Assembly (NCBI GenBank): GCA_964568665.1
Contig: CAZMPY010000005.1
Location: 128,742 to 192,741, forward strand
DNA from: an uncultured Thermoplasmata archaeon
GTDB lineage: Archaea > Thermoplasmatota > Thermoplasmata > UBA10834
Direction of reading: 5' to 3'
DNA: 64,000 nucleotides
Shown: piece after piece, positions 11,532 to 32,136 of the stretch
How the letters are laid out: every line of letters starts with the position of its first letter
How positions within the stretch are numbered: the first letter of the stretch is position 1
Position numbers and translations under genes: made by a program
Notes under the pieces: generated by a model
Told to the model about the DNA's origin: nothing
The model's database searches: none
What the model saw: the letters and a program-made list of their open reading frames with translations, nothing else

Positions 11532-12920
11532 ATGGACTCGGAAGACCAGAAACGGTACGCGCTCACACTCGCCCTCCTCAGCGCGTTCCTGACCCCGTTC
11601 ATGTCGTCCTCGATCAACGTCGCCCTCCCGGCGATCTCGGACGAGTTCGGCATGACAGCGGTGAGGCTCAGCTGGGTCGCGACATCGTACCTGCTCGCGG
11701 CCGCGGCGTTCCTCCTGCCCTTCGGGAGGGTGGCGGACATCAGGGGCAGGAAGAGGGTCTTCCTCATGGGCATGTGGGTCTTCATGATCGCATCGGCCCT
11801 GTGCGCCCTCGCGCCATCGGCGGACCTGCTGATAGCGGCGCGCTACGTGCAGGGGCTGGGCGCCGCCATGATGTTCGGCACGTCCATCGCGATCATCAGC
11901 TCGGTCTATCCACCGAACGAGAGAGGGAAGGCGTTCGGGCTCAGCGTCTCCGTCACGTACATAGGGTTGTCGGCCGGGCCGGTCCTGGGTGGCTTCCTGA
12001 CATCGTTCCTGGGCTGGAGGAGCATATTCCTCGTACCGATCCCGCTCATGGCAGCTGTCATCTGGCTCGGCTCGACGAAGCTGAAGGGCGAGTGGTCCGA
12101 GGCGAAGGGCGAGAGATACGACCCGCAGGGTTCCACACTCTACATACTATCCATAACCGCGGTGATCGTAGGTTTCTCGCTGCTCCCCGACATCGCAGGC
12201 ATCGTGCTGACCGTCGCAGGCGTGGTGGTCCTCACGACATTCGTCCTCTGGGAGCTCAGGCAGGCGAGCCCCGTCCTCGACATGCGCCTGTTCAGGCACA
12301 ACCGGGCGTTCGCGTTCTCGAACATGGCCGCGCTCATCAACTACATGGCGACCTTCGCCGTGGGCTTCATGATGAGCCTATACCTGCAGTTCGTGAAGGG
12401 CTTCAGCCCCGAAGAGACCGGGCTCATGCTCATGTCGCAGACCGTGGTCATGGCTGTGTTCTCGCCCGTGGCTGGCAAGCTCTCGGACCGGGTCGAGCCG
12501 CAGTTCATCGCGTCAGCGGGGATGGCCGTGGCCGCCGCTGGCCTCGTCGGCATCGCGTTCTTCGGTTCCGGGACCCCGGCGTGGACGATCATCGCGGTGC
12601 TGGCGGTCCTCGGGTTCGGGTTCGCGCTGTTCTCGTCGCCGAACACGAACGCCATCATGAGCGCCGTCGAGAAGAGGCACTATGGGACCGCGGCCGCATC
12701 GGTCGGCACGATGCGCCTCATCGGGCAGGTCATGAGCATGGGCATAGCGAGCATGTTCCTGGCCATATATGTCGGCAGGGTGGAGATCACGGCCGACCTC
12801 GCGCCAGAGTTCCTGAGCGCGTTCAAGCCGGCGTTCATCGTGTTCGCGGCGCTGTGCTCCATCGGCGTGCTGGCATCCCTGGCCAGAGGGAAGGTCCGGA
12901 ACGGTGCAGGGGTGCAGTGA
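11532..12920 (+). CDS. MFS transporter, DHA2/EmrB-like (about 14 TM segments)
   Basis: 462 aa, hydrophobic throughout. MFS loop motif FGRVADIRGRKRVF between TM2 and TM3. Length and TM count fit drug:H+ antiporter-2 type. Confidence 0.75.
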   Translation: MDSEDQKRYALTLALLSAFLTPFMSSSINVALPAISDEFGMTAVRLSWVATSYLLAAAAFLLPFGRVADIRGRKRVFLMGMWVFMIASALCALAPSADLLIAARYVQGLGAAMMFGTSIAIISSVYPPNERGKAFGLSVSVTYIGLSAGPVLGGFLTSFLGWRSIFLVPIPLMAAVIWLGSTKLKGEWSEAKGERYDPQGSTLYILSITAVIVGFSLLPDIAGIVLTVAGVVVLTTFVLWELRQASPVLDMRLFRHNRAFAFSNMAALINYMATFAVGFMMSLYLQFVKGFSPEETGLMLMSQTVVMAVFSPVAGKLSDRVEPQFIASAGMAVAAAGLVGIAFFGSGTPAWTIIAVLAVLGFGFALFSSPNTNAIMSAVEKRHYGTAAASVGTMRLIGQVMSMGIASMFLAIYVGRVEITADLAPEFLSAFKPAFIVFAALCSIGVLASLARGKVRNGAGVQ

Positions 12921-12930
12921 GGACAGCGTT

Positions 12931-12958
12931 GATATAGTTATGAATTATTATCCATAAC
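12931..12958 (+). promoter_or_regulatory. TATA-like box plus inverted repeat (candidate operator) directly upstream of the DUF134 gene; spacing implies a leaderless mRNA
   Basis: GATATAG at 12931-12937 is centred about 26 nt before GTG 12960. GTTATG (12937-12942) and CATAAC (12953-12958) are a perfect 6-bp inverted repeat around an AT-only 10-bp spacer, in the only AT-rich patch of the 39-bp gap. Confidence 0.45.
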
Positions 12959-12959
12959 C

Positions 12960-13313
12960 GTGCCGAGGCCGAAACGGTGCAGGAGGGTGTGCCTCGACCC
13001 CGCCTGCTGCTACTTCAAGCCACAGGGCGTCCCCATGGACCGGCTGGAATCGGTCAGCCTGGGGCTCGACGAGCTCGAGGCGCTCAACCTGGCGGACCTG
13101 ATTGGGCTCACCCAGACAGATGCGGCCAAGAGGATGGACATCTCCCAGGCGACCTTCAACCGGGTGCTCTCAGGCGCCCGGGGGAAGGTGGCCAGGAGCC
13201 TCGTCGAGGGGCTCGCGCTCAGGATCGAGGCGACAACCGAGCCGGCAGCGGCACCCCGCGGCGTGGGATGCGCACGCAAGTGCGGCAGAAGGACGGAGGG
13301 AATGGCGAGATGA
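12960..13313 (+). CDS. DUF134 (UPF0251) family putative DNA-binding protein
   Basis: 117 aa, GTG start. MPRPKRCRRV...CYFKPQGVP N-terminus and LTQTDAAKRMDISQATFNRVL HTH match the DUF134 pattern as I remember it. Stop overlaps the next start (ATGA). Confidence 0.75.
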   Translation: MPRPKRCRRVCLDPACCYFKPQGVPMDRLESVSLGLDELEALNLADLIGLTQTDAAKRMDISQATFNRVLSGARGKVARSLVEGLALRIEATTEPAAAPRGVGCARKCGRRTEGMAR

Positions 13314-13945
13314 GGTCCGCGACGCTCCGCGTACACATCCCAGGCAACTGGATCGGGTGCCTGTCCAGCACATGCGACCTGTCCGTGCGGGTCCTCAAAT
13401 GCTCCACGCGGAACAGCGAGGGGGGGCAGAGCATCCTGCAGATAGACGCGCCGGCGGAGCTCACGCAGGAGGAGCTGGTCAGGCGCATCAAGGAGCTAGA
13501 GCCCAGGTGCGTCGTCCAGCTGGACAACCTCGGGCCTGGCAGACACCTCGCCACCGTCCAGCTGGAGACCTGCAAGGCCTGCCAGCTAGTGAGCGAGACA
13601 GGGTGCTTCATGGATTCCGCCACGACGACAGGCGACGGGGATATCCAGTGGAACATAGTCGCCCCCAACGCCGCTGCTCTGAACACGCTCGTTGACAAGA
13701 TCAAGGCCCTGGGATGCACGGTCACCGTCGACAGGGTCTCCTTGCTCAGGACCGGGTCCGAGCTGACGAAGGCCCAGGAACACGTTCTGGCGATGGCCTA
13801 CGAGCTAGGCTACTACGAGATACCCAGGAAGGTCACCCTCGCGATCCTGGCGAAGCGGCTGGAGGTCTCAAAGGCCACGCTCGACGTGATACTCAGGCGA
13901 GCCGAGAGGAAGCTCGTCGCGGACAAGCTCGGGCGCATGGCCTGA
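13310..13945 (+). CDS. HTH_10 (Bat-type) transcriptional regulator with Cys-containing N-terminal domain
   Basis: Start ATG 13310 inside ORF 12977..13945. C-terminal LTKAQEHVLAMAYELGYYEIPRKVTLAILAKRLEVSKATLDVILRRAERKL is the archaeal HTH_10 signature. N-terminal half carries CLSSTC, LKC and ETCKACQLVSETGC. Confidence 0.7.
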   Translation: MRSATLRVHIPGNWIGCLSSTCDLSVRVLKCSTRNSEGGQSILQIDAPAELTQEELVRRIKELEPRCVVQLDNLGPGRHLATVQLETCKACQLVSETGCFMDSATTTGDGDIQWNIVAPNAAALNTLVDKIKALGCTVTVDRVSLLRTGSELTKAQEHVLAMAYELGYYEIPRKVTLAILAKRLEVSKATLDVILRRAERKLVADKLGRMA

Positions 13946-14021
13946 GGACGCTAGGCTGACATGTTCGCCGCATCTGGCTTCCCCTAGATACGACCTGGTG
14001 CCTTACAGAGGAGATCACATC

Positions 14022-14408
14022 ATGCCGAAGAAGACCGGTTACTCCGAGAAATCACTGATAGTCGTAGGGACGCATGCGGATGACGACATCGAGAGGGCCA
14101 CCATGACCTTCGCCTGCGCAGGCGCGGCCGCCGCGCTGGGCGTCAAGACGACCGTGTTCCTCACGGTCGACGGTGTGAAGCTCGCACAGAAGGGCTTCGC
14201 CGCGAAGATGCGCAAGGTCGAGGGTATGGCCTCGATAAGCGACCTCATAGACGCCTTCGTCGGGGCCGGAGGGAGGATCCAGGCCTGCGTGCCCTGCGCG
14301 GACTCCCGCGGGATCGACAGGAAGAGCTTCCTGCCAGGCGTCGAACTCGTCAACCTCATGGACTTCGCCTCCGCGATGATCGAGGCGGACAAGGTCTACA
14401 GCTGCTGA
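14022..14408 (+). CDS. DsrE/DsrF-like family protein
   Basis: Start ATG 14022 (GAGGAG upstream). SLIVVGTHADDDIERATMTFACAGAAAALG...TVFLTVDGV...ACVPCADSRGI resembles the DsrE/DrsE sulfur-relay fold with a conserved Cys. Confidence 0.6.
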   Translation: MPKKTGYSEKSLIVVGTHADDDIERATMTFACAGAAAALGVKTTVFLTVDGVKLAQKGFAAKMRKVEGMASISDLIDAFVGAGGRIQACVPCADSRGIDRKSFLPGVELVNLMDFASAMIEADKVYSC

Positions 14409-14422
14409 GGGGAGCTGGACCG

Positions 14423-15289
14423 ATGACGGGGCAGTGTGGGAGCGGAAAGAGCGGGAAATGCCAGACGGACATCGGCCGGGTACCGGCGGTGTCCGCGGCG
14501 GAGAACCTGGCGAAGACCAGGCACAAGATCATAGTCATGAGCGGCAAGGGAGGTGTCGGCAAGTCCACGGTCGCTGTGAACCTCGCGACCGCGCTCTCCA
14601 GGAGAGGGTTCGTGGTCGGGCTGCTGGACGCGGACATGCACGGCCCGAGCGTGCCGAAGCTGCTCGGGCTGCCGGACCTGCCGCTGGCGGTCGATGAGAA
14701 GGGCAGGATACAGCCTGTGCACGTGCCCCCATCGATGAAGGTCGTGTCGATAGCGTTCCTGCTCCATGACCGGGACGCCCCGGTCATATGGCGCGGGCCG
14801 CTGAAGATGGGCGCAATCAAGCAGTTCCTAGAAGAGGTCGAGTGGGGCGCCCTCGACTACCTGATAATCGACCTGCCCCCGGGGACCGGGGACGAGCCGC
14901 TGAGCGTGGCCCAGCTGGTCCCGGCCCCCGACGGGGCGCTGATCGTGACGACGCCGCAGGATGTGGCGCTCCTGAGCGTGAGGAAGTCCATCAACTTCGC
15001 GAAGGCCATGGGCCTGCCCGTGATCGGACTCGTGGAGAACATGGACGGCTTCCTCTGCCCCCATTGCGGCAAGGAGGTCGAGCTGTTCGTCGGAGGAGGC
15101 GCGAAGACCGCCTCCGAGGATTTCTCCGTGCCCCTGCTGGGGAAGATACCGTTCGACCCTGCGGTCTCGAAGAGCGGGGACGATGGCAAGCCATTCGTCC
15201 TCTCGTCCGGGAGCCGGCCCGCGAAGGCGTTCGACGCCATCGCGGATAAGGTCGTCTCGCTGACTGAGAAGGCAAAGGGGGGGCATTGA
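14423..15289 (+). CDS. Mrp/NBP35/ApbC-family iron-sulfur cluster carrier ATPase
   Basis: 288 aa. Deviant Walker A SGKGGVGKST. Mrp signature WGALDYLIIDLPPGTGDE. Cluster-bridging CPHCG motif. N-terminal extra cysteines (CGSGKSGKC), NBP35-like. Confidence 0.85.
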   Translation: MTGQCGSGKSGKCQTDIGRVPAVSAAENLAKTRHKIIVMSGKGGVGKSTVAVNLATALSRRGFVVGLLDADMHGPSVPKLLGLPDLPLAVDEKGRIQPVHVPPSMKVVSIAFLLHDRDAPVIWRGPLKMGAIKQFLEEVEWGALDYLIIDLPPGTGDEPLSVAQLVPAPDGALIVTTPQDVALLSVRKSINFAKAMGLPVIGLVENMDGFLCPHCGKEVELFVGGGAKTASEDFSVPLLGKIPFDPAVSKSGDDGKPFVLSSGSRPAKAFDAIADKVVSLTEKAKGGH

Positions 15290-15430
15290 GGCAACCGGCT
15301 GGCTGGACACCATGCCAGCCCATCGGGACGGCCCGCCCGTGCCCTCGGTCAGCATACGGATTACCAGGACTTGCGGGGAGACGGTCGACATGATCAAGAA
15401 TCCGACCGAGAGCAAGGGGTGAGAAGAGAT

Positions 15431-15766
15431 ATGCCAAGAGGATTCGGAAGGGGAGACAACTGGAGGCGCAACGAACGCGGCATGTTCTGGGCAGGACATC
15501 CCCAGGGATACGCGTCGGTCGCCGGAGCACCGAAGGGCGCGGCCTACGTGGGCCCATGCCGCTGCGGGCGCGGACCTCGCGCCTACTACAGGCTCGCGGA
15601 CGGCGAGGTCGTGCATGCTGCAAGCCTGCCATACGCTAAGGAGACGGAAGAGTCACGGCCCGAACCGACGCACGACAGATCGGAGACCGAGGTCGAGCGC
15701 CTCAAGGACCGCGTTCGTGAGCTCGAGAAGAGGCTGAAGGAGTCGAGGGGGACCACCGAGCGGTGA
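15431..15766 (+). CDS. DUF5320 family protein
   Basis: Start ATG 15431 inside ORF 15371..15766. MPRGFGRGDNW... Gly/Arg-rich N-terminus with a CRCG motif, then a C-terminal coiled coil (EVERLKDRVRELEKRLKE), the DUF5320 pattern that typically accompanies DUF134/NifX-like clusters. Confidence 0.6.
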   Translation: MPRGFGRGDNWRRNERGMFWAGHPQGYASVAGAPKGAAYVGPCRCGRGPRAYYRLADGEVVHAASLPYAKETEESRPEPTHDRSETEVERLKDRVRELEKRLKESRGTTER

Positions 15767-15784
15767 ACCGGAGATGAGATTCCA

Positions 15785-16015
15785 ATGGCTCCGATGAGAT
15801 CGTTCAAATGCCACGCCTGCGGGCACGAATGGGAGGTCCCTTACGGGACTGGCAGGCCTTCGACCTGCCCCAAGTGCCGCAGCGCCGACATCCACAGGTC
15901 CGGCGCGGACCGGGGACCCAGGGCTGCGTCCGGCGGACGGTGCGGCCCAGGAGGGCCGTCGAGCGATGGGAGAGGGCGAGGGGGAGCGGGACGAGCCCAC
16001 AGAGGTGGAGCATGA
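15785..16015 (+). CDS. FmdB-like Cys4 zinc-ribbon mini-protein with Gly/Arg-rich tail
   Basis: 76 aa. FKCHACGHEWEVPYGTGRPSTCPKCRS ribbon, then a GGRCGPGGPSSDGRGRGGAGRAHRGGA tail. GGAG upstream. Stop overlaps next start (ATGA). Confidence 0.55.
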   Translation: MAPMRSFKCHACGHEWEVPYGTGRPSTCPKCRSADIHRSGADRGPRAASGGRCGPGGPSSDGRGRGGAGRAHRGGA

Positions 16016-16179
16016 CCATCGACCTCGATGACGTGGACTTCGGCTCGAACAGGTGCGTGTGCCCCGAATGCGGGAAGGAGGTCCCACACGCAAAGCGAGG
16101 CGTGCCCTGTTCGGAGACGAGATGCCCGAGCTGCGGAAGCATGATGAAAGGCAGGAAGTGCACGGAAGACAAGGAGTGA
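16012..16179 (+). CDS. Cys-rich zinc-ribbon mini-protein
   Basis: 55-aa reading frame from ATG 16012 inside ORF 15808..16179: MTIDLDDVDFGSNRCVCPECGKEVPHAKRGVPCSETRCPSCGSMMKGRKC. Coupled to both neighbours by overlapping stop/start codons. Confidence 0.5.
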   Translation: MTIDLDDVDFGSNRCVCPECGKEVPHAKRGVPCSETRCPSCGSMMKGRKCTEDKE

Positions 16180-16598
16180 TGTCATTGAATGGAGGCACTA
16201 CACAGGAAACCAAGCACGAGAGGATCTGCATCACGTCCACCGGGCGCACAGCGCTGGACCCGGTCGACCCGAGATTCGGAAGGTGCTCGTTCTTTCTCAT
16301 AGTCGATGGACGCAAGGACGGCTTCGAGGCTGTAGAGAACCACGCGAGGTCCCTCGGGAACGGCGCGGGCATCCAGGCGGCCCAGGAGGTCGCCAACCTG
16401 AGAGTCACAGCGGTCATAACGGGAGACCTCGGACCGAACGCCTTCCGTGTGCTCTTCGCGGCGGGGATCAGGATGTTCCACGCATCTGGCTGTGACGCCA
16501 ACCGGGCACTCTCAGAATACCGGGAGGGCAAGCTCTCCGAGATCACAGCGCCCACCGGGCAGGGACACCACGGGATGGGAGGACACGGGCCCAGGTGA
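16179..16598 (+). CDS. NifX/NifB-C-terminal-like (dinitrogenase FeMo-cofactor-binding fold) protein, copy 1
   Basis: Start ATG 16179 (TGATG overlap). ERICITSTG...PRFGRCSFFLIVD...AVITGDLGPNAFRVLFAAGIRMF fits the small NifX-like family. Gly/His-rich tail GQGHHGMGGHG. Confidence 0.7.
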   Translation: MSLNGGTTQETKHERICITSTGRTALDPVDPRFGRCSFFLIVDGRKDGFEAVENHARSLGNGAGIQAAQEVANLRVTAVITGDLGPNAFRVLFAAGIRMFHASGCDANRALSEYREGKLSEITAPTGQGHHGMGGHGPR

Positions 16599-16623
16599 AT
16601 GGACCGGGGGCAGGAGAGCGGTG

Positions 16624-17100
16624 ATGGGTTTGGACCACGAGAAGAGGAACCGCGAGGAACTGGACACGCTGGTGGAGAACATCTCCAGGATCCTCGGAGG
16701 GGAGGATGAGAAGCTCTACTCGCGGGAGGTCGTAGCGGAGTTCAGGGACGCATCCCATGCCGGGCGGATGCCAGACGCCGACGGCAGCGGCATCGCGGAT
16801 GGGCTCTGCGGCGACACGATGGAGTTCTACATCAAGGTCGCATCGGACAAGATTGCAACATGCACGTTCTACACGGACGGTTGTGGGACCACGATCGCCT
16901 GCGGCAACAGGCTGGCGCGTTTCGTCACAGGCATGGACCCAGACACCGCAAAGGTGGTCACGCCGAACGACCTGATCTCGCTGCTGAACGGGCTCCCACC
17001 AGACCACGAGCACTGTGCGTCTCTCGCGGTGATCGCGCTCCGGAACGCCCTCCGGGACTTCGACGCGCGTGTCCGGGGAGGAGGGGGAGGCGCGCGATGA
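16624..17100 (+). CDS. IscU/NifU-N-terminal-like Fe-S cluster scaffold protein
   Basis: Start ATG 16624 inside ORF 16447..17100. Three scaffold cysteines in the expected context (GLCGDTMEFY, TDGCGTTIACG, HEHCASLAV). Confidence 0.75.
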   Translation: MGLDHEKRNREELDTLVENISRILGGEDEKLYSREVVAEFRDASHAGRMPDADGSGIADGLCGDTMEFYIKVASDKIATCTFYTDGCGTTIACGNRLARFVTGMDPDTAKVVTPNDLISLLNGLPPDHEHCASLAVIALRNALRDFDARVRGGGGGAR

Positions 17101-17258
17101 GGCTCGTCAGGTACAGGTGCAAGGGGTGCGGTCTGGAGCTGCTGGTGGAGGCACGTCCTGAGAAATGCTTCTGCTGCGGTTCAACGGACATGGTCCGCGA
17201 AGGATGGAAGGAGAGGTACAGGAGAATCAAAGCCGAATCGTCGACAGAAGGGAGATGA
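17097..17258 (+). CDS. Cys4 zinc-ribbon mini-protein
   Basis: 53 aa from ATG 17097 (ATGA overlap with the IscU-like stop): MRLVRYRCKGCGLELLVEARPEKCFCCGSTDMVREGW. Confidence 0.5.
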   Translation: MRLVRYRCKGCGLELLVEARPEKCFCCGSTDMVREGWKERYRRIKAESSTEGR

Positions 17259-17262
17259 TATC

Positions 17263-17622
17263 TTGAAAATCTGTGTGCCCACGGGCGGGAAAGGCGGATA
17301 CGATGACATGGTGAGCGAGCACTTCGGAAGGGCTCCGACGTTCACCGTCGTCGACACCGAGAGCGAGAAAGTGAACGTCGTCGCGAACACGAGCGAGCAC
17401 ATGGGCGGCTCGGGCAAGCCTCCGGAGCACATAGCCCGGACGGGCGCGCAGGTGCTCGTGTGCTCTGGGCTGGGCCCCAAGGCCATCGAGATGTTCGAAT
17501 CATTCGGGATAGAGGTCTATGTCGGGGCCCAAGGGAGCACGCGACAGGCCATCGAGATGTGGCGCGCGGGCAAGCTCCAGAAGGCCTCCGACCAGAACGC
17601 CTGCAAAGAGCACAGTCACTAA
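17263..17622 (+). CDS. NifX/NifB-C-terminal-like protein, copy 2
   Basis: 119 aa (TTG start, 4 nt after previous stop). MKICVPTGGKGGYDDMVSEHFGRAPTFTVVD...VLVCSGLGPKAIEMFESFGIEVY. Confidence 0.75.
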   Translation: MKICVPTGGKGGYDDMVSEHFGRAPTFTVVDTESEKVNVVANTSEHMGGSGKPPEHIARTGAQVLVCSGLGPKAIEMFESFGIEVYVGAQGSTRQAIEMWRAGKLQKASDQNACKEHSH

Positions 17623-17693
17623 TTGCGGATCACTCAGCCAGGAGCGATTCTTCGCCGTTTAGAGAAGACAGCCTACGGACCAGCGTGAGAACC

Positions 17694-18536
17694 ATGGTAC
17701 GGATTTCAATCGCCAGCGGCAAGGGAGGGACCGGGAAGACACTAGTGGCAACGAACCTCGCAGCGGTCGCGGGGAGCGCGCTCCTCGTCGACCTCGATGT
17801 CGAGGAACCCAACTCACATCTCTTCTTCAGGTGCACGGGGGAGGAAGGAGAAGTGGTGAACCGGAAGGTGCCGTTCATAGACAAAGCGAAGTGCACGGCC
17901 TGCGGCATCTGCGCTAAGGTGTGCGAATTCCACGCCATCGCGTCCCTTCCGAAGGACATCCTCGTGTTCGACGAGCTTTGTCACAGCTGTGGCGCATGCT
18001 CTAGGTTCTGCCCCGAGGAGGCGATTGAGGAGCGGGACCACCAGATTGGAGAGGTCGTCCGCGCAAGCGCCGAGGGGCTACGGGGGCTGGTCTACGGGAG
18101 GCTGAGGATCGGCGAGGCGTCGGCCTCGGCCCTGATCAAGCGCGTCAAGAAGGAGATCCCTGACGACGGGCTCACAATCATCGACTGCCCGCCAGGGACC
18201 GCCTGCCCAGCGGTCGAGAGCATGCGAGGCTCCGACCTGTGCGTCCTGGTGACGGAGCCCACGCCTTTCGGGTTCCACGATCTCAAACTGGCATTGGCGG
18301 TCACCGAGAAACTCAATCTACCGCGTGTCGTCTTCCTGAACAAGAAGGGCCTCCCCGGCCCGGATGTCTGCGCGTTCTGCAGAGAGAACGGGATACCCAT
18401 AGTGGGCGAGGTCCGACACGAGAGAAGGATCGCCGAGATCTACTCGGAGGGAGGGCTGCTGTTGTCAGACCCCGAGTACGAACGCGTCTTCAGGTCTGCC
18501 TTGGCGAGGATCCTCGAGGAGGTGAGGGGGCCATGA
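17694..18536 (+). CDS. MinD/ParA-type P-loop ATPase with inserted 2x[4Fe-4S] ferredoxin domain, copy 1
   Basis: Start ATG 17694 inside ORF 17460..18536. Deviant Walker A SGKGGTGKT. CTACGICAKVC and CHSCGACSRFCP cluster motifs. IIDCPPGTACP. Confidence 0.8.
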   Translation: MVRISIASGKGGTGKTLVATNLAAVAGSALLVDLDVEEPNSHLFFRCTGEEGEVVNRKVPFIDKAKCTACGICAKVCEFHAIASLPKDILVFDELCHSCGACSRFCPEEAIEERDHQIGEVVRASAEGLRGLVYGRLRIGEASASALIKRVKKEIPDDGLTIIDCPPGTACPAVESMRGSDLCVLVTEPTPFGFHDLKLALAVTEKLNLPRVVFLNKKGLPGPDVCAFCRENGIPIVGEVRHERRIAEIYSEGGLLLSDPEYERVFRSALARILEEVRGP

Positions 18537-19408
18537 AGGAGATAGTCGTGCTCAGCGGCAAGGGAGGGACGGGCAAGACGGTCATGCTCGCGAGTTTCGT
18601 GTCGTTAGCCGACCACCCAGTGATTGCCGACTGCGACGTGGACGCGCCCAACCTGCACCTCCTCCTGAACCCTCAGGTCAGGGAACGTGGGAGGTTCACC
18701 TCGAGCAAGGTGGCCGTCATCGATGGAAGGAAATGTAGCAGCTGCATGGAGTGCCTGCCAGCGTGCAGATTCGACGCACTGAAGGCCATCGGGAGCGGCT
18801 GCGTGCAGAAGGTCACGGTGGACGACGATGCGTGCGAAGGGTGTGGCGTGTGCGTGCGCATGTGCCCGTCGCGGGCCGTCAGGCTCGTGGAGCGGGATTC
18901 GGGCGAGTGGTTCGTCTCGGACACGCGCTTCGGGCCCATGGTGCATGCGCTCCTGGCGCCGGGAGGCGAGAACTCCGGCAAGCTCGTGGCCCTGGTGAAA
19001 CAGAAGGCGAAGGTCATAGCGAACAAGTCGGGGGCACAGACCATCCTGGTCGACGGCCCGCCCGGACTGAGCTGTTCCGCCATCTCGGCGGCCGCGGGGG
19101 CCGATCTGCTCGTCCTCGTCGCGGAACCCACCGTTTCGGGTCTGAGCGACTTCGCCAGGATAGCGGACCTCTGCGCCCATCTGAAGTCGGATGCGGCGTT
19201 GGTCGTGAACCGATGGGACATCAACAGGAAGGTCACGGACGCGATCGAGCGCATGGCGAAACTGAGAGGGATTGAGCCGCTTGGACGCGTCCCCTACGAC
19301 GAGGGCATCCCAGCATCCATGGCCGTCTCCAAGACACTCATAGAGGCGCAGGAGAGCCGGGCGAGGACATCCGTCATCGAGATCTGGGAAAGGCTCAAGA
19401 AGTGCTGA
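18533..19408 (+). CDS. MinD/ParA-type P-loop ATPase with inserted 2x[4Fe-4S] ferredoxin domain, copy 2
   Basis: Start ATG 18533 (ATGA overlap). SGKGGTGKT. CSSCMECLPAC and CEGCGVCVRMCP. LVDGPPGLSCS. Confidence 0.8.
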   Translation: MKEIVVLSGKGGTGKTVMLASFVSLADHPVIADCDVDAPNLHLLLNPQVRERGRFTSSKVAVIDGRKCSSCMECLPACRFDALKAIGSGCVQKVTVDDDACEGCGVCVRMCPSRAVRLVERDSGEWFVSDTRFGPMVHALLAPGGENSGKLVALVKQKAKVIANKSGAQTILVDGPPGLSCSAISAAAGADLLVLVAEPTVSGLSDFARIADLCAHLKSDAALVVNRWDINRKVTDAIERMAKLRGIEPLGRVPYDEGIPASMAVSKTLIEAQESRARTSVIEIWERLKKC

Positions 19409-19566
19409 CGGCTTCATCAAGAGAGCGCGGGGTGCGGCCTCGCGATGGCCCTCAAGGATAGGCCTGACAGGTGATTCTGCTGCGACTCATCGGACATCAT
19501 CAGGGAAGGCTGGAGACAGCATTTCAAGGACAGGATCAGAGCGAAGGGTACGAAGGATGTGAAGAA

Positions 19567-19968
19567 ATGAAGGTATGCGTGCCGACAATGGAGAAGGGCG
19601 GATTGGATGACTCGGTCAGCGGACACTTCGGGAGGGCCCCGACGTTCACGATCGTCGACATCGAGACGAACGAAGTGAAGGTCCTCAAGAACGACGGAGA
19701 GCACTTCGGAGGCCACGGCGGGGCTACCTCGAACGTGGTCCAGTCAGGGGCCACGGTGGTCGTCTGCGGAGGGATCGGACCCGGGGCGATACGCCTGCTG
19801 ACGACCTCTGGCATCAAGGTCTATTCCGGAGCCACGGGGACGGCCAGGGACACGATCAAGATGTGGAAGGAGGGTGCGCTCCCGGTCGCCGACGCCGACA
19901 ACGCCTGCAAGGACCACAGACACGAGCACGGTCACGAAGGAGAACACGACTGCAACTGCCATCACTGA
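19567..19968 (+). CDS. NifX/NifB-C-terminal-like protein, copy 3, with His/Cys-rich C-terminal tail
   Basis: Start ATG 19567 inside ORF 19471..19968. MKVCVPTMEKGGLDDSVSGHFGRAPTFTIVD, close paralog of copy 2. Tail DHRHEHGHEGEHDCNCHH. Confidence 0.75.
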   Translation: MKVCVPTMEKGGLDDSVSGHFGRAPTFTIVDIETNEVKVLKNDGEHFGGHGGATSNVVQSGATVVVCGGIGPGAIRLLTTSGIKVYSGATGTARDTIKMWKEGALPVADADNACKDHRHEHGHEGEHDCNCHH

Positions 19969-20040
19969 CCGGCGTGGCCCATGCCCGTGAGCGGATGCAC
20001 GGGGCAACCATTAACGGGCACGGGCGCCTAGACAGGACAC

Positions 20041-20469
20041 GTGGCGGCGAAGAGGCTCAAGGTCCGCAGGTCCGATGACGAGTGGAAGAGACGGCTCACG
20101 GACGAGCAGTACCGGGTCCTTAGGCAGAAGAGGACCGAGCGACCGTTCACCGGCAAGCACCTGACCGAGACGCGCGAAGGCATGTACAGATGCGCCGGGT
20201 GCGGGCAGGAGCTGTTCCCGTCCGATGCGAAATTCGACACGGACTGCGGGTGGCCGAGCTTCACTGGACCAGCGGAGCGTGAAGCGGTCGAGGAGCACGA
20301 AGACCTGTCCCAAGGCATGCGCAGGACGGAGGTGCTCTGCCGCAGATGCGCGGGACACCTGGGGCACGTGTTCGGCGACGGCCCCGGCCCGGCAGGCCTG
20401 AGGTACTGCATCAACTCGGCGGCCCTGGACTTCTCCGAGCGGAAGAGCGCACGAGGGGAAGACAGGTGA
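20041..20469 (+). CDS. msrB: peptide-methionine (R)-S-oxide reductase
   Basis: 142 aa (GTG start). Two CxxC pairs (CAGCG, CRRCAGHLGHVF) and RYCINS catalytic region typical of MsrB. Confidence 0.9.
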   Translation: MAAKRLKVRRSDDEWKRRLTDEQYRVLRQKRTERPFTGKHLTETREGMYRCAGCGQELFPSDAKFDTDCGWPSFTGPAEREAVEEHEDLSQGMRRTEVLCRRCAGHLGHVFGDGPGPAGLRYCINSAALDFSERKSARGEDR

Positions 20470-20714
20470 CCCTGATGGAAGGTCTGGAAAAGGATGTGTT
20501 AAGGGGTTTTCAACGCTCCGGATGCTCCGGTCAGACGCCCCAGGACTCAAGCAGGAACGGCCACCAGGCGATTCCCGGGAACTCGAACCCGATGTAGTCC
20601 TCCAGCGGATGTAGTTCTCGCAGGCAACGACGTCTCCGCGAAGGTCAGGGGCGTACCTGTTCGGGCATCAACCGATGTGTCCGTGCGCGAATCAGCCCCG
20701 GGAGGACTATCACG

Positions 20715-21191
20715 ATGGCGACAGCTACCTTCGCGGCTGGATGCTTCTGGGGCATCGAGGCCGCGTTCAGGGAGATCGGGGGAGTGACCGACACGACGGT
20801 CGGCTACACCGGGGGCACGACGGAGCATCCGACCTACGAGCAGGTCTGCACCGACAGGACGGGGCACGCGGAGGCGGTCCGGGTCGAATACGACCCGGGG
20901 GTCGTGAGCTACGACCGGTTGCTGGATGCGTTCTGGCGCATGCATGACCCGACAACGAGGGACAGGCAGGGCCCGGACGTGGGACGCCAGTACAGGTCGG
21001 CCATATTCTACCACGACGATGACCAGCGCGCACGCGCGCAGGCGTCAGTGGGAAGACTGCAGAGCACGGGCGGGTCCGGGGGGCGCAGGATAGTCACAGA
21101 GATCGCGCACGCGGGCGCGTTCTACAAGGCAGAGGAGTACCACCAGAGGTACCGCGAGAAGCACGGGATGGCGGCGTGCCGGTCGCGGTGA
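20715..21191 (+). CDS. msrA: peptide-methionine (S)-S-oxide reductase
   Basis: 158 aa. [13 protein letters not shown] active-site motif, [24 protein letters not shown]. Confidence 0.9.
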
Positions 21192-23375: not shown

Positions 23376-23600
23376 GTGGATCTACCCGTGCGGCAAAGCA
23401 ACGGCCGTGCATATATCGCTGGATGTATTCAACTTTGGCCCTGTTGCTTGTCCGAATGTTGCGGTCGACGAGGCTCGAGAAAGACAACGGGGAAGAATGA
23501 TGAAATAACGGTACAACCATTGAGAGAGTGATCGAGGAACCACTTTTAGCATGCCATCAACAGAACCAACTTTATCACCGCGGTCCCGAGGGCGGGGCTG

Positions 23601-23705
23601 ATGACCTACATCAGGAACGTGCCCCGGACCCACGAGCGTGAAGAGAAGCTCACGGACTTCGAGGCAAAGCTGGAGCGCGCGATCTCCCAAGACAGCACGC
23701 TCTAA
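23601..23705 (+). CDS. tentative 34-aa small ORF in otherwise non-coding island
   Basis: ATG 23601 preceded by GAGGGCGGGG. MTYIRNVPRTHEREEKLTDFEAKLERAISQDSTL. About 30 of 33 third positions are G/C, like real genes here and unlike the flanks. No family recognised. Confidence 0.3.
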   Translation: MTYIRNVPRTHEREEKLTDFEAKLERAISQDSTL

Positions 23706-24275
23706 TCGGGCGCGTGCATCCGGCCCATGAGCAATCTGTGCATTTATCATCGTGTCATTGCATTTTGTGCGACAGGATTCCCGATTATAATAGCACAAAT
23801 GGATTCAGTTCAAATTTGATAGCGGTTGCCCATCATCCCACTTATATAGCAAACCACCGATATGCTGCCCTTGGCACCGTTGTCAGGCGCGGCTTGACGA
23901 CGGAAACGGGGGGAAATGGTGCCACGAACGGTGATGCCTCTAGGGTAGCTAGGTTGCGTGCCGTTTCAATCCTTGCTGCATTCAATCTCCAGGCAACGTC
24001 GTGGACCGTATCACAGGATGATGGTGCGAACTCCGCTGAGATTGCCACCACGGGCGACCTTGTTGTGAGGATTGGATACGCCTGAGGGAAAGCGACCGCG
24101 AACCCCCTGCTTGTAGAGATGGAAAGGACCGCGTAGCATACAGACCGATTCTCAGCTTGCGGTTCACATACGACCAGAACCTACTGGAAACTGTTCTAAA
24201 ACCGGCCGCGGCCGACGCCTGGCTGCTGCCCGTAGCCCCGGTCAAGGTCTGCACCGAGGGACGGTCGCCTAGGGT

Positions 24276-31764: not shown

Positions 31765-32136
31765 ATGAAGGTCTGCGTTCCGTGCAACTCGCCGGGAGGG
31801 CCAGATGCGGTCATCGCGTCGCCGTTCGAGGAGACCGACCTGCTGGACTACTACGAGCTCCTGCCGGATGGCAGGTTCGAGCACACGGCCCAGATGAGGA
31901 ACTGCGGGGACGCGGCATGCGTCAACCCCGTCGACGCCATCGCGAGCAGGGGAGTCGCGAAGATCGTGGTCACGGGACTCACCCCGACATCCCTGATGCG
32001 GCTCCACAACGCCGGCGTAAAGGTGTATCTCGCCAGCGACCCGCTCGCGCGCGCGGCCCTGGACGACCTCGCGAAGGGCGGGCTCACAGAAGTCACAATC
32101 GACCGGTTCGCGACCCTCGAAAGGACAAGGAAATGA
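31765..32136 (+). CDS. NifX/NifB-C-terminal-like protein, copy 4 (divergent)
   Basis: 123 aa. MKVCVPCNSPGGPDAVIASPFEETDLLDYYEL...KIVVTGLTPTSLMRLHNAGVKVY is collinear with copies 2 and 3 but lacks their HFGRAP motif. Confidence 0.6.
   Translation: MKVCVPCNSPGGPDAVIASPFEETDLLDYYELLPDGRFEHTAQMRNCGDAACVNPVDAIASRGVAKIVVTGLTPTSLMRLHNAGVKVYLASDPLARAALDDLAKGGLTEVTIDRFATLERTRK

Follow-up and report, generated by a model that had tools for sequence, protein, structure and literature searches.

The orange protein (ORP) complex was described in 2011 and has had no settled role since. The module that combines MinD-ferredoxin ATPases with NifX-like proteins, as the ORP system does, is among the most widespread gene clusters of anaerobes that lack an assigned function. 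A cluster of this type was examined here in a 64000-nucleotide stretch of DNA from an uncultured Thermoplasmata archaeon (GenBank assembly GCA_964568665.1; contig CAZMPY010000005.1, positions 128742–192741 of the forward strand), the whole of which is referred to below as the window.

The ORP system of Desulfovibrio vulgaris is encoded by DVU2103-2109. Orp3 and Orp4 are ATPases of the MinD-like type, both with a pair of [4Fe-4S] ferredoxin motifs, Orp8 is an orange protein of the PF02579 family, homologues of which hold a non-covalent S2MoS2CuS2MoS2 cluster, Orp9 (MrpORP) is a fusion of an Mrp/NBP35 domain and a PF02579 (Di-Nase) domain, and Orp5 has a small [2Fe-2S] protein as a homologue (PMC6345978, PMC8359166). 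Orp3, Orp4 and Orp8 co-purify and are given [4Fe-4S] clusters by MrpORP in vitro, and the sigma-54 activator OrpR, which has a PAS iron-sulfur (Fe-S) sensor, turns the operons off as the redox potential rises (PMC6345978, PMC8359166). The authors of these studies put forward a cell-division hypothesis and a possible archaeal origin, and called the cellular role unclear (PMC6345978, PMC8359166). Another protein with a PF02579 domain, IssA of Pyrococcus furiosus (PF2025), binds thioferrate via its PF02579 domain and a cationic tail (PMC5524996).

Comparison with the ORP system

Fourteen consecutive co-directional genes, g01 to g14, were found on the plus strand of the window at 12960–19968 using an open reading frame (ORF) listing and direct reading of the sequence. 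As the domain make-up of Orp3, Orp4, Orp5, Orp8 and Orp9 is matched, the MrpORP model is the best match for the carrier and g11 matches the D. gigas ORP structure (PDB 2wfb), the locus is very likely an ORP-type cluster, representing the Thermoplasmata version of DVU2103-2109. The ORP system was already known, and the locus is not an undescribed system. An earlier note on this DNA had called the cluster uncharacterised and without an assigned function; the latter is fair, but the former is wrong given the published ORP biochemistry. The genes are as follows.

12960–13313, +: g01, GTG start; DUF134 (UPF0251) helix-turn-helix (HTH) protein of 117 amino acids (aa) with a Cys-rich N-terminus
13310–13945, +: g02, HTH_10 regulator with an N-terminal sensor domain of 150 aa that includes five invariant Cys
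14022–14408, +: g03, DsrE-superfamily protein, 128 aa
14423–15289, +: g04, MrpORP-type Mrp/NBP35 carrier of Fe-S, consisting of the P-loop domain and with a CPHC motif
15431–15766, +: g05, divergent DUF5320-like protein with a C-terminal coiled coil
15785–16015, +: g06, FmdB/Zn_ribbon_8-type CxxC...CxxC mini-protein with a Gly/Arg tail (isoelectric point, pI, 11.9)
16012–16179, +: g07, mini-protein with the motif CxCxxC-x5-H-x6-C-x4-CxxC
16179–16598, +: g08, NifX-like (PF02579) protein with a Gly/His-rich tail
16624–17100, +: g09, U-type (IscU/NifU_N) scaffold
17097–17258, +: g10, CxxC...CxxC mini-protein, Thermoplasmata-specific
17263–17622, +: g11, TTG start; NifX-like protein, orange-protein relative
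17694–18536, +: g12, MinD-type ATPase with an inserted 2x[4Fe-4S] ferredoxin domain
18533–19408, +: g13, MinD-ferredoxin ATPase, paralogue of g12
19567–19968, +: g14, NifX-like protein with a His/Cys-rich tail

The 14 consecutive ORFs reported previously are real, with the start of g01 corrected from 12931 to the GTG at 12960 and those of g03, g08, g09 and g11 also corrected; all five starts agree with the boundaries of the Pfam matches and with homologues. Public gene calls differ from these homology-supported models: g06 is uncalled in the JGI and Logan calls, g07 is missed or extended in another frame, and the JGI calls shorten g01, g02 and g11.

Taken jointly, g12 and g13 are candidate counterparts of Orp4 and Orp3, with the individual pairing unassigned. 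By domain content, g04 would correspond to the P-loop domain of Orp9, and g08, g11 and g14 to Orp8 and the Di-Nase domain of Orp9, while the Cys-rich mini-proteins g06, g07 and g10 are probably candidates for the Orp5 counterpart. Both systems include an adjacent pair of MinD-type ATPases with two [4Fe-4S] ferredoxin motifs per ATPase, single-domain PF02579 proteins and a dedicated Cys-rich regulator, and probably also a carrier of the MrpORP type and one or more small Cys-rich Fe-S proteins, and both are restricted to anaerobes. However, the ORP genes form two divergent sigma-54 operons controlled by OrpR, sigma-54 and IHF, whereas the window has one co-directional operon with a DUF134 protein and an HTH_10 sensor regulator. 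Pfam analysis of the 14 genes revealed no sigma-54 activator within the cluster, and the DUF134 and HTH_10 proteins appear to be the regulators. The Mrp and Di-Nase domains, fused in ORP, are encoded separately in the window, and the NifX-like paralogues number three, of which g14 has the His/Cys tail. The window set also extends beyond that of ORP by g09 (U-type scaffold), g03 (DsrE-like), g05 (DUF5320-like) and the three zinc-ribbon mini-proteins.

Overlapping stop and start codons are present at five junctions (ATGA at 13310, 16012, 17097 and 18533, and TGATG at 16177), and direct reading verified each of those reported in the earlier note. The other junctions, in gene order, have gaps of 76, 14, 141, 18, 25, 4, 71 and 158 nt; gaps of less than 20 nt exist as had been stated, but there are three (14, 18 and 4 nt) and not two. 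The GGCTGGC...GCCAGCC hairpin noted before was also seen at 15297–15320 (+), immediately 3' of the g04 stop codon. The 141-nt gap between g04 and g05 (15288–15432) has a folding energy of -55.6 kcal/mol, which is a modest excess of folding relative to shuffled sequences (z = -2.2). The hairpin is not followed by a T-run and has no match in Rfam, and an Rfam scan of 12000–21000 found no riboswitch or other RNA element. A scan for sigma-70 promoters and terminators found nothing exceeding background, and no RNA structure was detected in the gap between g13 and g14 (z = +0.6).

Four independent metagenome assemblies carry the cluster in identical form. The window also encodes PolB, archaeal Pus10 and ArgG/ArgH, and is a chromosomal stretch. 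The closest relatives of g12 and g02 carry the labels Thermoplasmata or Methanomassiliicoccus.

The ATPase pair and its conserved neighbourhood

Pfam searches identified a CbiA domain and two Fer4 domains in each of g12 and g13. The eight ferredoxin Cys residues are 100% conserved in both paralogue families (n=80 for g12 and n=78 for g13), as are the features of the ATPase domain, namely the deviant Walker A motif KGGxGK[ST], the switch I Asp residues and the Walker B Asp, which both families keep. Each paralogue also has one extra invariant Cys, located +7 from the Walker B Asp in the motif D-x-P-P-G-x-x-C (D164-C-P-P-G-T-A-C171 in g12 and D-G-P-P-G-L-S-C181 in g13). This additional Cys just after Walker B is a new observation.

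In the SIMIBI ATPases NifH, Nbp35/Cfd1, Get3, CooC and HypB, a cluster or metal is bridged by Cys residues of the dimer interface, and the +7 spacing between the Walker B Asp and the Cys presumably equals that of D125 and C132 in NifH. By analogy with these relatives, C171 and C181 are probably located at a nucleotide-controlled dimer interface. When the g12 and g13 alignments were compared with the A. vinelandii NifH sequence using hhalign, the local mode missed the segment containing the Cys, and the global mode placed the invariant Cys on GPEPGVGC97 with near-zero confidence, so that neither C97 nor C132 was reliably matched.

An AlphaFold2 (AF2) model of g12 is confident, with a predicted local distance difference test (pLDDT) score of 94.9. 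The structural neighbours of this model include MinD, FleN, BchL, NifH, ApbC, ATPase-type HypB and Cfd1 at about equal template modelling (TM) scores of 0.5–0.6, and McdA is among the nearest together with MinD and FleN. As well as structural similarity at this level, the SIMIBI ATPases (Nbp35/Cfd1/ApbC, NifH/BchL, CooC, HypB and Get3) share with g12 and g13 the deviant Walker A motif, a nucleotide-dependent dimer, here predicted, and a Cys at or near switch II, but g12 and g13 differ in carrying the complete 2x[4Fe-4S] ferredoxin domain, inserted immediately behind switch I, and in being an obligate pair of paralogues. The inserted domain was seen in no solved structure, and there is no curated family model for MinD-ferredoxin proteins. 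The NCBIfam MinD models score g12 and g13 at 36–55 bits against cutoffs of more than 200 (for minD_arch, 36.5 and 55.2 bits with a cutoff of 201.75). A literature search found no functional study of COG1149.

To examine the distribution of the cluster, 80 loci from species-representative genomes were selected as those most similar to g12, using a profile of g12 homologues, and ORFs in all six frames of these loci were searched with iterated profiles of the 14 window proteins. At least 521 GTDB species had a match in the g12-type scan, which confirmed 521 of the 600 stretches that matched. The archaeal loci include Thermoplasmata, Bathyarchaeia, Thorarchaeota, Methanothrix, Methanocellaceae and Methanohalophilus, and the bacterial loci include Desulfobacterales, Syntrophales, Dehalococcoidia, Planctomycetota, Ignavibacteria, Zixiibacteriota, Omnitrophota and Acidobacteriota.

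The ATPase genes are in tandem in 75 of the 80 loci, and the g12-like gene precedes the g13-like gene in every one of these (75/75). An exhaustive HMMER search with g12 recovered 712 cluster representatives at E <= 1e-30, and the top scorers were ~600 aa in length. Among the 32 long (~600 aa) homologues (from P0162–P0194), 31 were fusions in which the N-terminal half is g12-like and the C-terminal half g13-like, as in the order of the genes. As the gene order is fixed and natural fusions occur (Rosetta-stone evidence), these sequences support a g12:g13 heterodimer.

Same-strand matches to the remaining families were counted in the 36 tandem-pair loci with complete 5-kb flanks, and were found in the following numbers of loci.

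NifX-like: 35/36
Mrp: 22/36
g06-type zinc ribbon (ZnA): 18/36
DUF5320: 15/36
IscU-like: 13/36
g07-type Cys6His protein (ZnB): 12/36
DUF134: 9/36
DsrE-like: 3/36
HTH_10: 1/36

The density of the cluster families within 5 kb of the ATPase pair is 6 to 15 times that further out, with 2.58 NifX matches per 10 kb near the pair and 0.17 further out. These counts and densities identify the ATPase pair and the NifX-like proteins as the invariant core. Genes for Mrp, U-type scaffolds, Cys-rich mini-proteins, DUF5320 and DUF134 often accompany this core across phyla, whereas g02, g10 and the gene order as a whole are confined to Thermoplasmata, of which two loci (L005 and L006) show colinearity with the window at 56–59% protein identity. 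The earlier suggestion that DUF134, NifX-like and MinD-ferredoxin genes recur together in anaerobes is borne out by the 80 loci. However, the scaffold and carrier genes had been thought particular to the version in the window, and they are instead found in many phyla. Neither MinC nor MinE is among the recurrent neighbours of the related loci.

Other genes on the same strand within 7 kb of the pair encode radical-SAM proteins (21 loci), MBL-fold proteins (18 loci), ARMT1/DUF89 (15 loci) and DUF1847 (8 loci), and REC-type sigma-54 activators flank 16 bacterial loci. None of these five neighbour types is present in the window.

Associated proteins and regulators

The three NifX-like proteins all matched PF02579 (Nitro_FeMo-Co) in Pfam, with 64 bits for g08, 78 bits for g11 and 83 bits for g14. 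In sequence searches of the PDB, g11 matched TM1816 (2e-15), D. gigas ORP (2wfb_A; 5.4e-10) and MTH1175 (9e-10), as well as PH0822 and TM1290. Both g11 and g14 also match the Di-Nase part (positions 272–361) of the MrpORP model NF041136. The tails that follow the domain differ, with 24 aa (pI 7.1) in g08, 15 aa in g11 and a His/Cys-rich sequence (29% His, 12% Cys; pI 5.9) in g14. Similar His-rich tails are found in homologues from Bathyarchaeia and Thermodesulfobacteriota, and neither L005 nor L006 has a g14 gene. Grouping of homologues into g08, g11 and g14 types by best jackhmmer match was uninformative because the profiles merge. A fourth, divergent NifX-like ORF (MKVCVPCNSPGG...) is located 12 kb downstream of the cluster at 31765–32133 (+), after a gene for a PKD-domain protein, and gave matches of 1e-5 to 1e-7 to the profiles of g08, g11 and g14.

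NifB, NifX and NafY share with these proteins the PF02579 fold, to which a complex anionic metal-sulfur cluster binds non-covalently, but the window includes no nif genes, radical-SAM domain or nitrogenase, and its NifX-like proteins are nearer to the TM1816, PH0822, ORP and MTH1175 structures than to NifB, NifX or NafY. The earlier conclusion that this is not a nitrogenase context was correct, as the window lacks both nifHDKEN and a gene for radical-SAM NifB.

The carrier g04 belongs to the ParA/NUBPL family (PF10609; 319 bits in Pfam), and its CPHC motif is present; this CxxC is kept in 87% of the cluster-linked Mrp proteins. The best NCBIfam model for g04 was MrpORP NF041136 (360 bits; positions 2–256 of 365), followed by ApbC (227 bits). 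The score is under the NF041136 cutoff of 450 since the Di-Nase domain is missing, the MrpORP architecture being split into separate genes here. The scaffold g09 matches PF01592 (NifU_N; 78 bits) and, like IscU and clostridial NifU, retains intact the three Cys, the Asp of the CGD motif and the His before the third Cys. In 34 cluster-linked homologues of g09, C62, C87 and C131 are at least 94% conserved and H130 is 88% conserved. However, g09 is below every NCBIfam equivalog cutoff (the top model, NifU_clost, gives 78 bits against 188), and differs from IscU and NifU in having a 30-aa N-terminal extension, LPPDHEH in place of LPPVK and no adjacent cysteine desulfurase gene; indeed, none was found among the annotated ORFs of the window. 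The DsrE-superfamily protein g03 matches PF02635 (60 bits in Pfam) and gave 30 bits with the DsrE2 equivalog model, for which the cutoff is 210. Homologues of g03 are found in 4 of the 80 loci, and C89 of g03 may correspond to the active-site Cys.

Profile searches recovered all the families that had been proposed for these genes except DUF5320, as g05 scores 19.5 bits with PF17253 (cutoff 27) and the canonical GPxGxGPxTGRG motif is missing. However, g05 retains the build of DUF5320 proteins, with a cationic half rich in Gly and aromatic residues (residues 1–62; pI 10.2) followed by a coiled coil, and an orthologue is present in L006. The disordered regions of 28 DUF5320 proteins, when pooled, had fractions of 0.31 for Gly, 0.11 for Arg plus Lys, 0.16 for Phe, Trp and Tyr and 0.03 for Asp plus Glu, with a pI of 11.0. 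The corresponding values for the thioferrate-binding tail of IssA are 0.21 Gly, 0.10 cationic and 0.20 aromatic residues and a pI of 10.7 (PMC5524996). DUF5320 tails are close in composition to the IssA tail, a link that is new, and no functional study of DUF5320 was found in the literature. IssA (PMC5524996) and the window proteins have in common the PF02579 (IPR003731) domain, its association with cationic disordered sequence rich in Gly and aromatic residues, and an archaeal, anaerobic and sulfidic setting. However, IssA has a 70-aa cationic tail fused to the domain, whereas the tails of the window NifX-like proteins are short or His-rich and the IssA-like composition is found on separate proteins (g05 and the tail of g06 here; DUF5320 elsewhere). 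IssA is involved in thioferrate storage, and the window system is known from its genes alone.

For the three mini-proteins, Pfam gave only sub-threshold zinc-ribbon matches, and for g06 the scores with PF09723 (26.5 bits) and TIGR02605 (25 bits) were both below threshold. Homologues of g06 were found in 33 of the 80 loci, with the four Cys conserved at 98–100%. For g07, homologues were present in 28 of the 80 loci, and six Cys and one His showed 93% conservation. Bacterial versions of the g07-type domain follow a fused N-terminus of DUF5320-like character, rich in Gly and Arg. Homologues of g10 were detected in L005 and L006 only.

Two further features were read from the sequence upstream of g01.

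12929–12936, +: TATA-like box TTGATATA, 24–31 nt 5' of the GTG start codon of g01
12937–12958, +: palindrome GTTATGAAT-N4-ATCCATAAC (9-4-9), between the TATA-like box and the g01 start

AT-rich boxes are found at the equivalent position in the colinear loci L005 (TTTTAGTA) and L006 (CTTAAATA), and the box in the window is a putative promoter element. The palindrome occurs once in the window, with no copies at the internal gaps of the cluster, and is kept at the matching place in L005 (5203–5224) and L006 (3763–3784). A 20-bp core of this palindrome, TTATGA-N8-TCATAA, was found at the 5' end of the cluster in distant lineages of both Bacteria and Archaea (L016, 1857–1876; L024, 5180–5199; L045, 5309–5328; L058, 5859–5878; L082, 3835–3854; with further sites in L019, 2720–2763; L037, 9008–9052; and L043, 5106–5151). 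The sites are located before the DUF134 gene or before the first gene of the cluster, the distance to the DUF134 start codon is usually 0–31 nt, and the bacterial consensus is TTATGArCATATGyTCATAA. When one mismatch was allowed, 21 matches to TTATGA-N8-TCATAA were found in 18 of the 80 loci, compared with 3.75 in block shuffles. A site with up to two mismatches is located within 150 nt upstream of 10 of 16 DUF134 genes, against a background of 1.1%. This palindrome ahead of DUF134 genes in both domains is also new.

The g01 protein matches PF02001 (72 bits in Pfam) and has homologues in 26 of the 80 loci. As DUF134 is the sole regulator common to these lineages, the palindrome at 12937–12958 is a putative operator to which DUF134 would bind, and the position of the operator indicates that DUF134 is probably an autoregulating repressor. 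A function for DUF134/UPF0251 was not found in the literature. Residues 7–17 of g01 (12978–13010) form a C-x3-C-x4-CC motif (CRRVCLDPACC) that is partly shared by L005 and L006 (CRRVCC) and is conserved at just 3–28% across the family. These Cys residues may give the regulator a metal or redox site that is particular to this lineage.

The second regulator, g02, matches PF04967 (65 bits in Pfam) and belongs to a family of 41 clusters, all of Thermoplasmata type. In its N-terminal domain, C31, C67, C88, C91 and C99 are invariant across the family. The remotest relative of g02 is encoded directly upstream of a minimal core consisting of two NifX genes and two ATPase genes, with a convergent Mrp gene, and several family members appear to be on the same contigs as ATPases, suggesting an association with the cluster. 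The g02 protein is thus an HTH_10 regulator dedicated to the cluster and, plausibly, a functional counterpart of OrpR; such a regulator with five invariant Cys had not been recognised previously. The AF2 model of the sensor domain has a pLDDT of 72, and a Foldseek search of this model against the PDB was uninformative, with a top partial match to Ta1207 (TM 0.45).

Possible roles of the cluster

Metal-cluster handling, the theme proposed in the earlier note, is still the most plausible one. The cargoes known for the PF02579 domain, namely the Mo-Cu-S cluster of orange protein, thioferrate in IssA and NifB-co in NifX, are all anionic, inorganic and held non-covalently, and the DUF5320 tails are IssA-like, suggesting a common class of anionic metal-sulfide cargo for the cluster. 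As the operon combines the core with scaffold, carrier and sulfur-relay-like genes and with two regulators, a role with Fe-S or metal sulfide is favoured over one in cell division. The preferred reading is that the locus is an ORP-type module that handles Fe-S or other inorganic metal-sulfide species by the mechanism below, and the probability of this reading with its full mechanism is put at roughly 55%.

In this mechanism, g01 would bind the palindrome and g02 would act as a Cys-rich sensor, both controlling a single long operon in response to redox or Fe-S status, in parallel with the Fe-S redox sensor OrpR of Desulfovibrio. The g09 scaffold would build Fe-S clusters with sulfur obtained via the DsrE-like g03 or directly from sulfide. 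The g04 carrier would then mature the ATPase heterodimer by handing over [4Fe-4S] clusters, for which the D. vulgaris MrpORP is an in vitro precedent. The g12/g13 heterodimer would be ATP-dependent and contain four [4Fe-4S] clusters, with one invariant Cys per subunit probably at the nucleotide-controlled interface, and would dock the NifX-like proteins, which co-purify with the ATPases in D. vulgaris. ATP and electrons would drive the loading, reduction or release of a metal-sulfide unit, inorganic and anionic, to which the NifX-like domain and cationic Gly/Arg/aromatic partners (g05 and the tail of g06) would bind non-covalently, as modelled on orange protein with its Mo-Cu-S cluster and on IssA with thioferrate. 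The labels ATP-driven insertase for the MinD-ferredoxin proteins and cofactor chaperone for the NifX-like proteins, which appeared in the earlier note, remain inferential.

Several points weigh against this reading. The cargo could be Fe-S, Mo/W/Cu-S or thioferrate, and no cysteine desulfurase or metal transporter is encoded in the window. The orthology with ORP is based on family models, on PDB 2wfb and on the descriptions in the ORP papers, with g01 a candidate for Orp7 and the mini-proteins candidates for Orp5. The predicted interface position of the invariant Cys lacks a reliable NifH register. Many of the 80 loci are incomplete at their ends, making the family frequencies approximate. The experiments cover Desulfovibrio, and the archaeal members are known from sequence alone. 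Finally, the sole published phenotype in Desulfovibrio is a morphological defect on inactivation of OrpR, which was attributed to lowered levels of the Orp proteins and read as a role in cell division (PMC6345978, PMC8359166).

The defect in D. vulgaris and the location of MrpORP at one cell pole would be expected if the MinD/ParA-like ATPases and Mrp place the division site or the chromosome, with the Fe-S clusters acting only as redox switches, and the g12 model is structurally nearest to MinD, FleN and McdA. However, its likeness to NifH, BchL, ApbC, HypB and Cfd1 is equally good, the NCBIfam MinD scores are far below their cutoffs, and the invariant partners of the ATPases are NifX-like proteins, Mrp and U-type scaffolds and not MinC/MinE or ParB. 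The ORP authors themselves call the role unclear, and a positioning function is considered quite unlikely. An ATP-dependent reductase of the NifH/BchL type, supplying low-potential electrons to a NifX-bound precursor in a split NifB-like pathway to a novel metallocofactor, is also unlikely, though slightly less so. Four [4Fe-4S] sites per heterodimer together with a Cys after Walker B at what is taken to be the NifH spacing would suit a reductase, BchL and NifH are among the top structural matches, and PF02579 is the cofactor-binding domain of NifB and NifX. A radical-SAM enzyme would be expected to participate in many genomes, and a gene for one is on the same strand in 21 loci, but radical-SAM genes are absent from both the cluster and the window, and hence are outside the core. 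In addition, the register with NifH was unconfirmed by hhalign, and the recurrent neighbours include no conserved gene analogous to NifDK or BchNB.

Homeostasis of thiometallates or soft metals, whereby the cluster would sequester or detoxify sulfides of Mo, W, Cu or another metal, or route W or Mo to AOR-like enzymes, is improbable. It would account for the S2MoS2CuS2MoS2 cluster in the founding family member, for the g14 tail, which with its high His content is typical of metal chaperones and resembles tails in homologues, and for the gene for a tungsten-type AOR located 7 kb from the cluster. However, AOR is syntenic in 0 of the 80 loci, g14 is missing from the colinear loci L005 and L006, no Mo, W or Cu transporter, molybdenum cofactor (Moco) gene or Moco riboswitch was found nearby, and the conserved U-type scaffolds and Mrp carriers indicate Fe-S. 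The proposal that AOR and the ferredoxin-fused AKR are nearby clients of the cluster has to be abandoned, as AOR, AKR-ferredoxin, MsrA and MsrB are all absent from the 10-kb flanks of the 80 loci, including L005 and L006. That Fe-S-related genes simply happen to lie together in one archaeon has a negligible probability. Internal gaps of 71–158 nt and disagreement between gene callers on several small genes would be compatible with a chance run, but these families are found together on one strand in dozens of phyla, concentrated around the ATPase pair, five junctions overlap, and L005 and L006 keep the gene order despite their limited protein identity. Chance juxtaposition is excluded by these synteny data.

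Beyond the preferred reading of an ORP-type module that handles metal sulfides, a tentative and less probable extension is that ORP-type clusters are a distinct and ancient machinery with which anaerobes use ATP and electrons to mobilise and assemble Fe-S. Here, the source would be inorganic iron-sulfide species and not cysteine, with NifX-like domains and, in trans, IssA-like Gly/Arg/aromatic proteins holding FeS as an anionic polymer or cluster. At an interface site consisting of its two invariant Cys, the MinD-ferredoxin heterodimer would extract or insert units by reduction, U-type scaffolds and MrpORP would forward the product to clients, and DUF134 would be a pan-prokaryotic repressor acting via TTATGA-N8-TCATAA. 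The Cys pair of the heterodimer, the DUF134 operator, the in trans IssA-like tails and the frequent linkage to IscU and Mrp make this class of clusters more testable. If confirmed, the first three of these would bear on the supply of Fe-S in strict anaerobes and archaea, many of which do not have a full ISC or SUF system and have a very high demand.

Genes for MsrB (SelR; 20041–20469, +) and MsrA (PMSR; 20715–21191, +) are located downstream of g14, from which they are separated by a gap of 72 nt, and may be co-transcribed with the cluster. In a closely related assembly (L002), a gene at 15241–15717 matching Cas12f1-like_TNB (PF07282), which is probably TnpB-like, is located between genes for a C11 peptidase and an AAT-family protein. 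The counterpart region of the window is at ~23400–24200, and the absence of this gene from both the window and L001 indicates strain-level variation.

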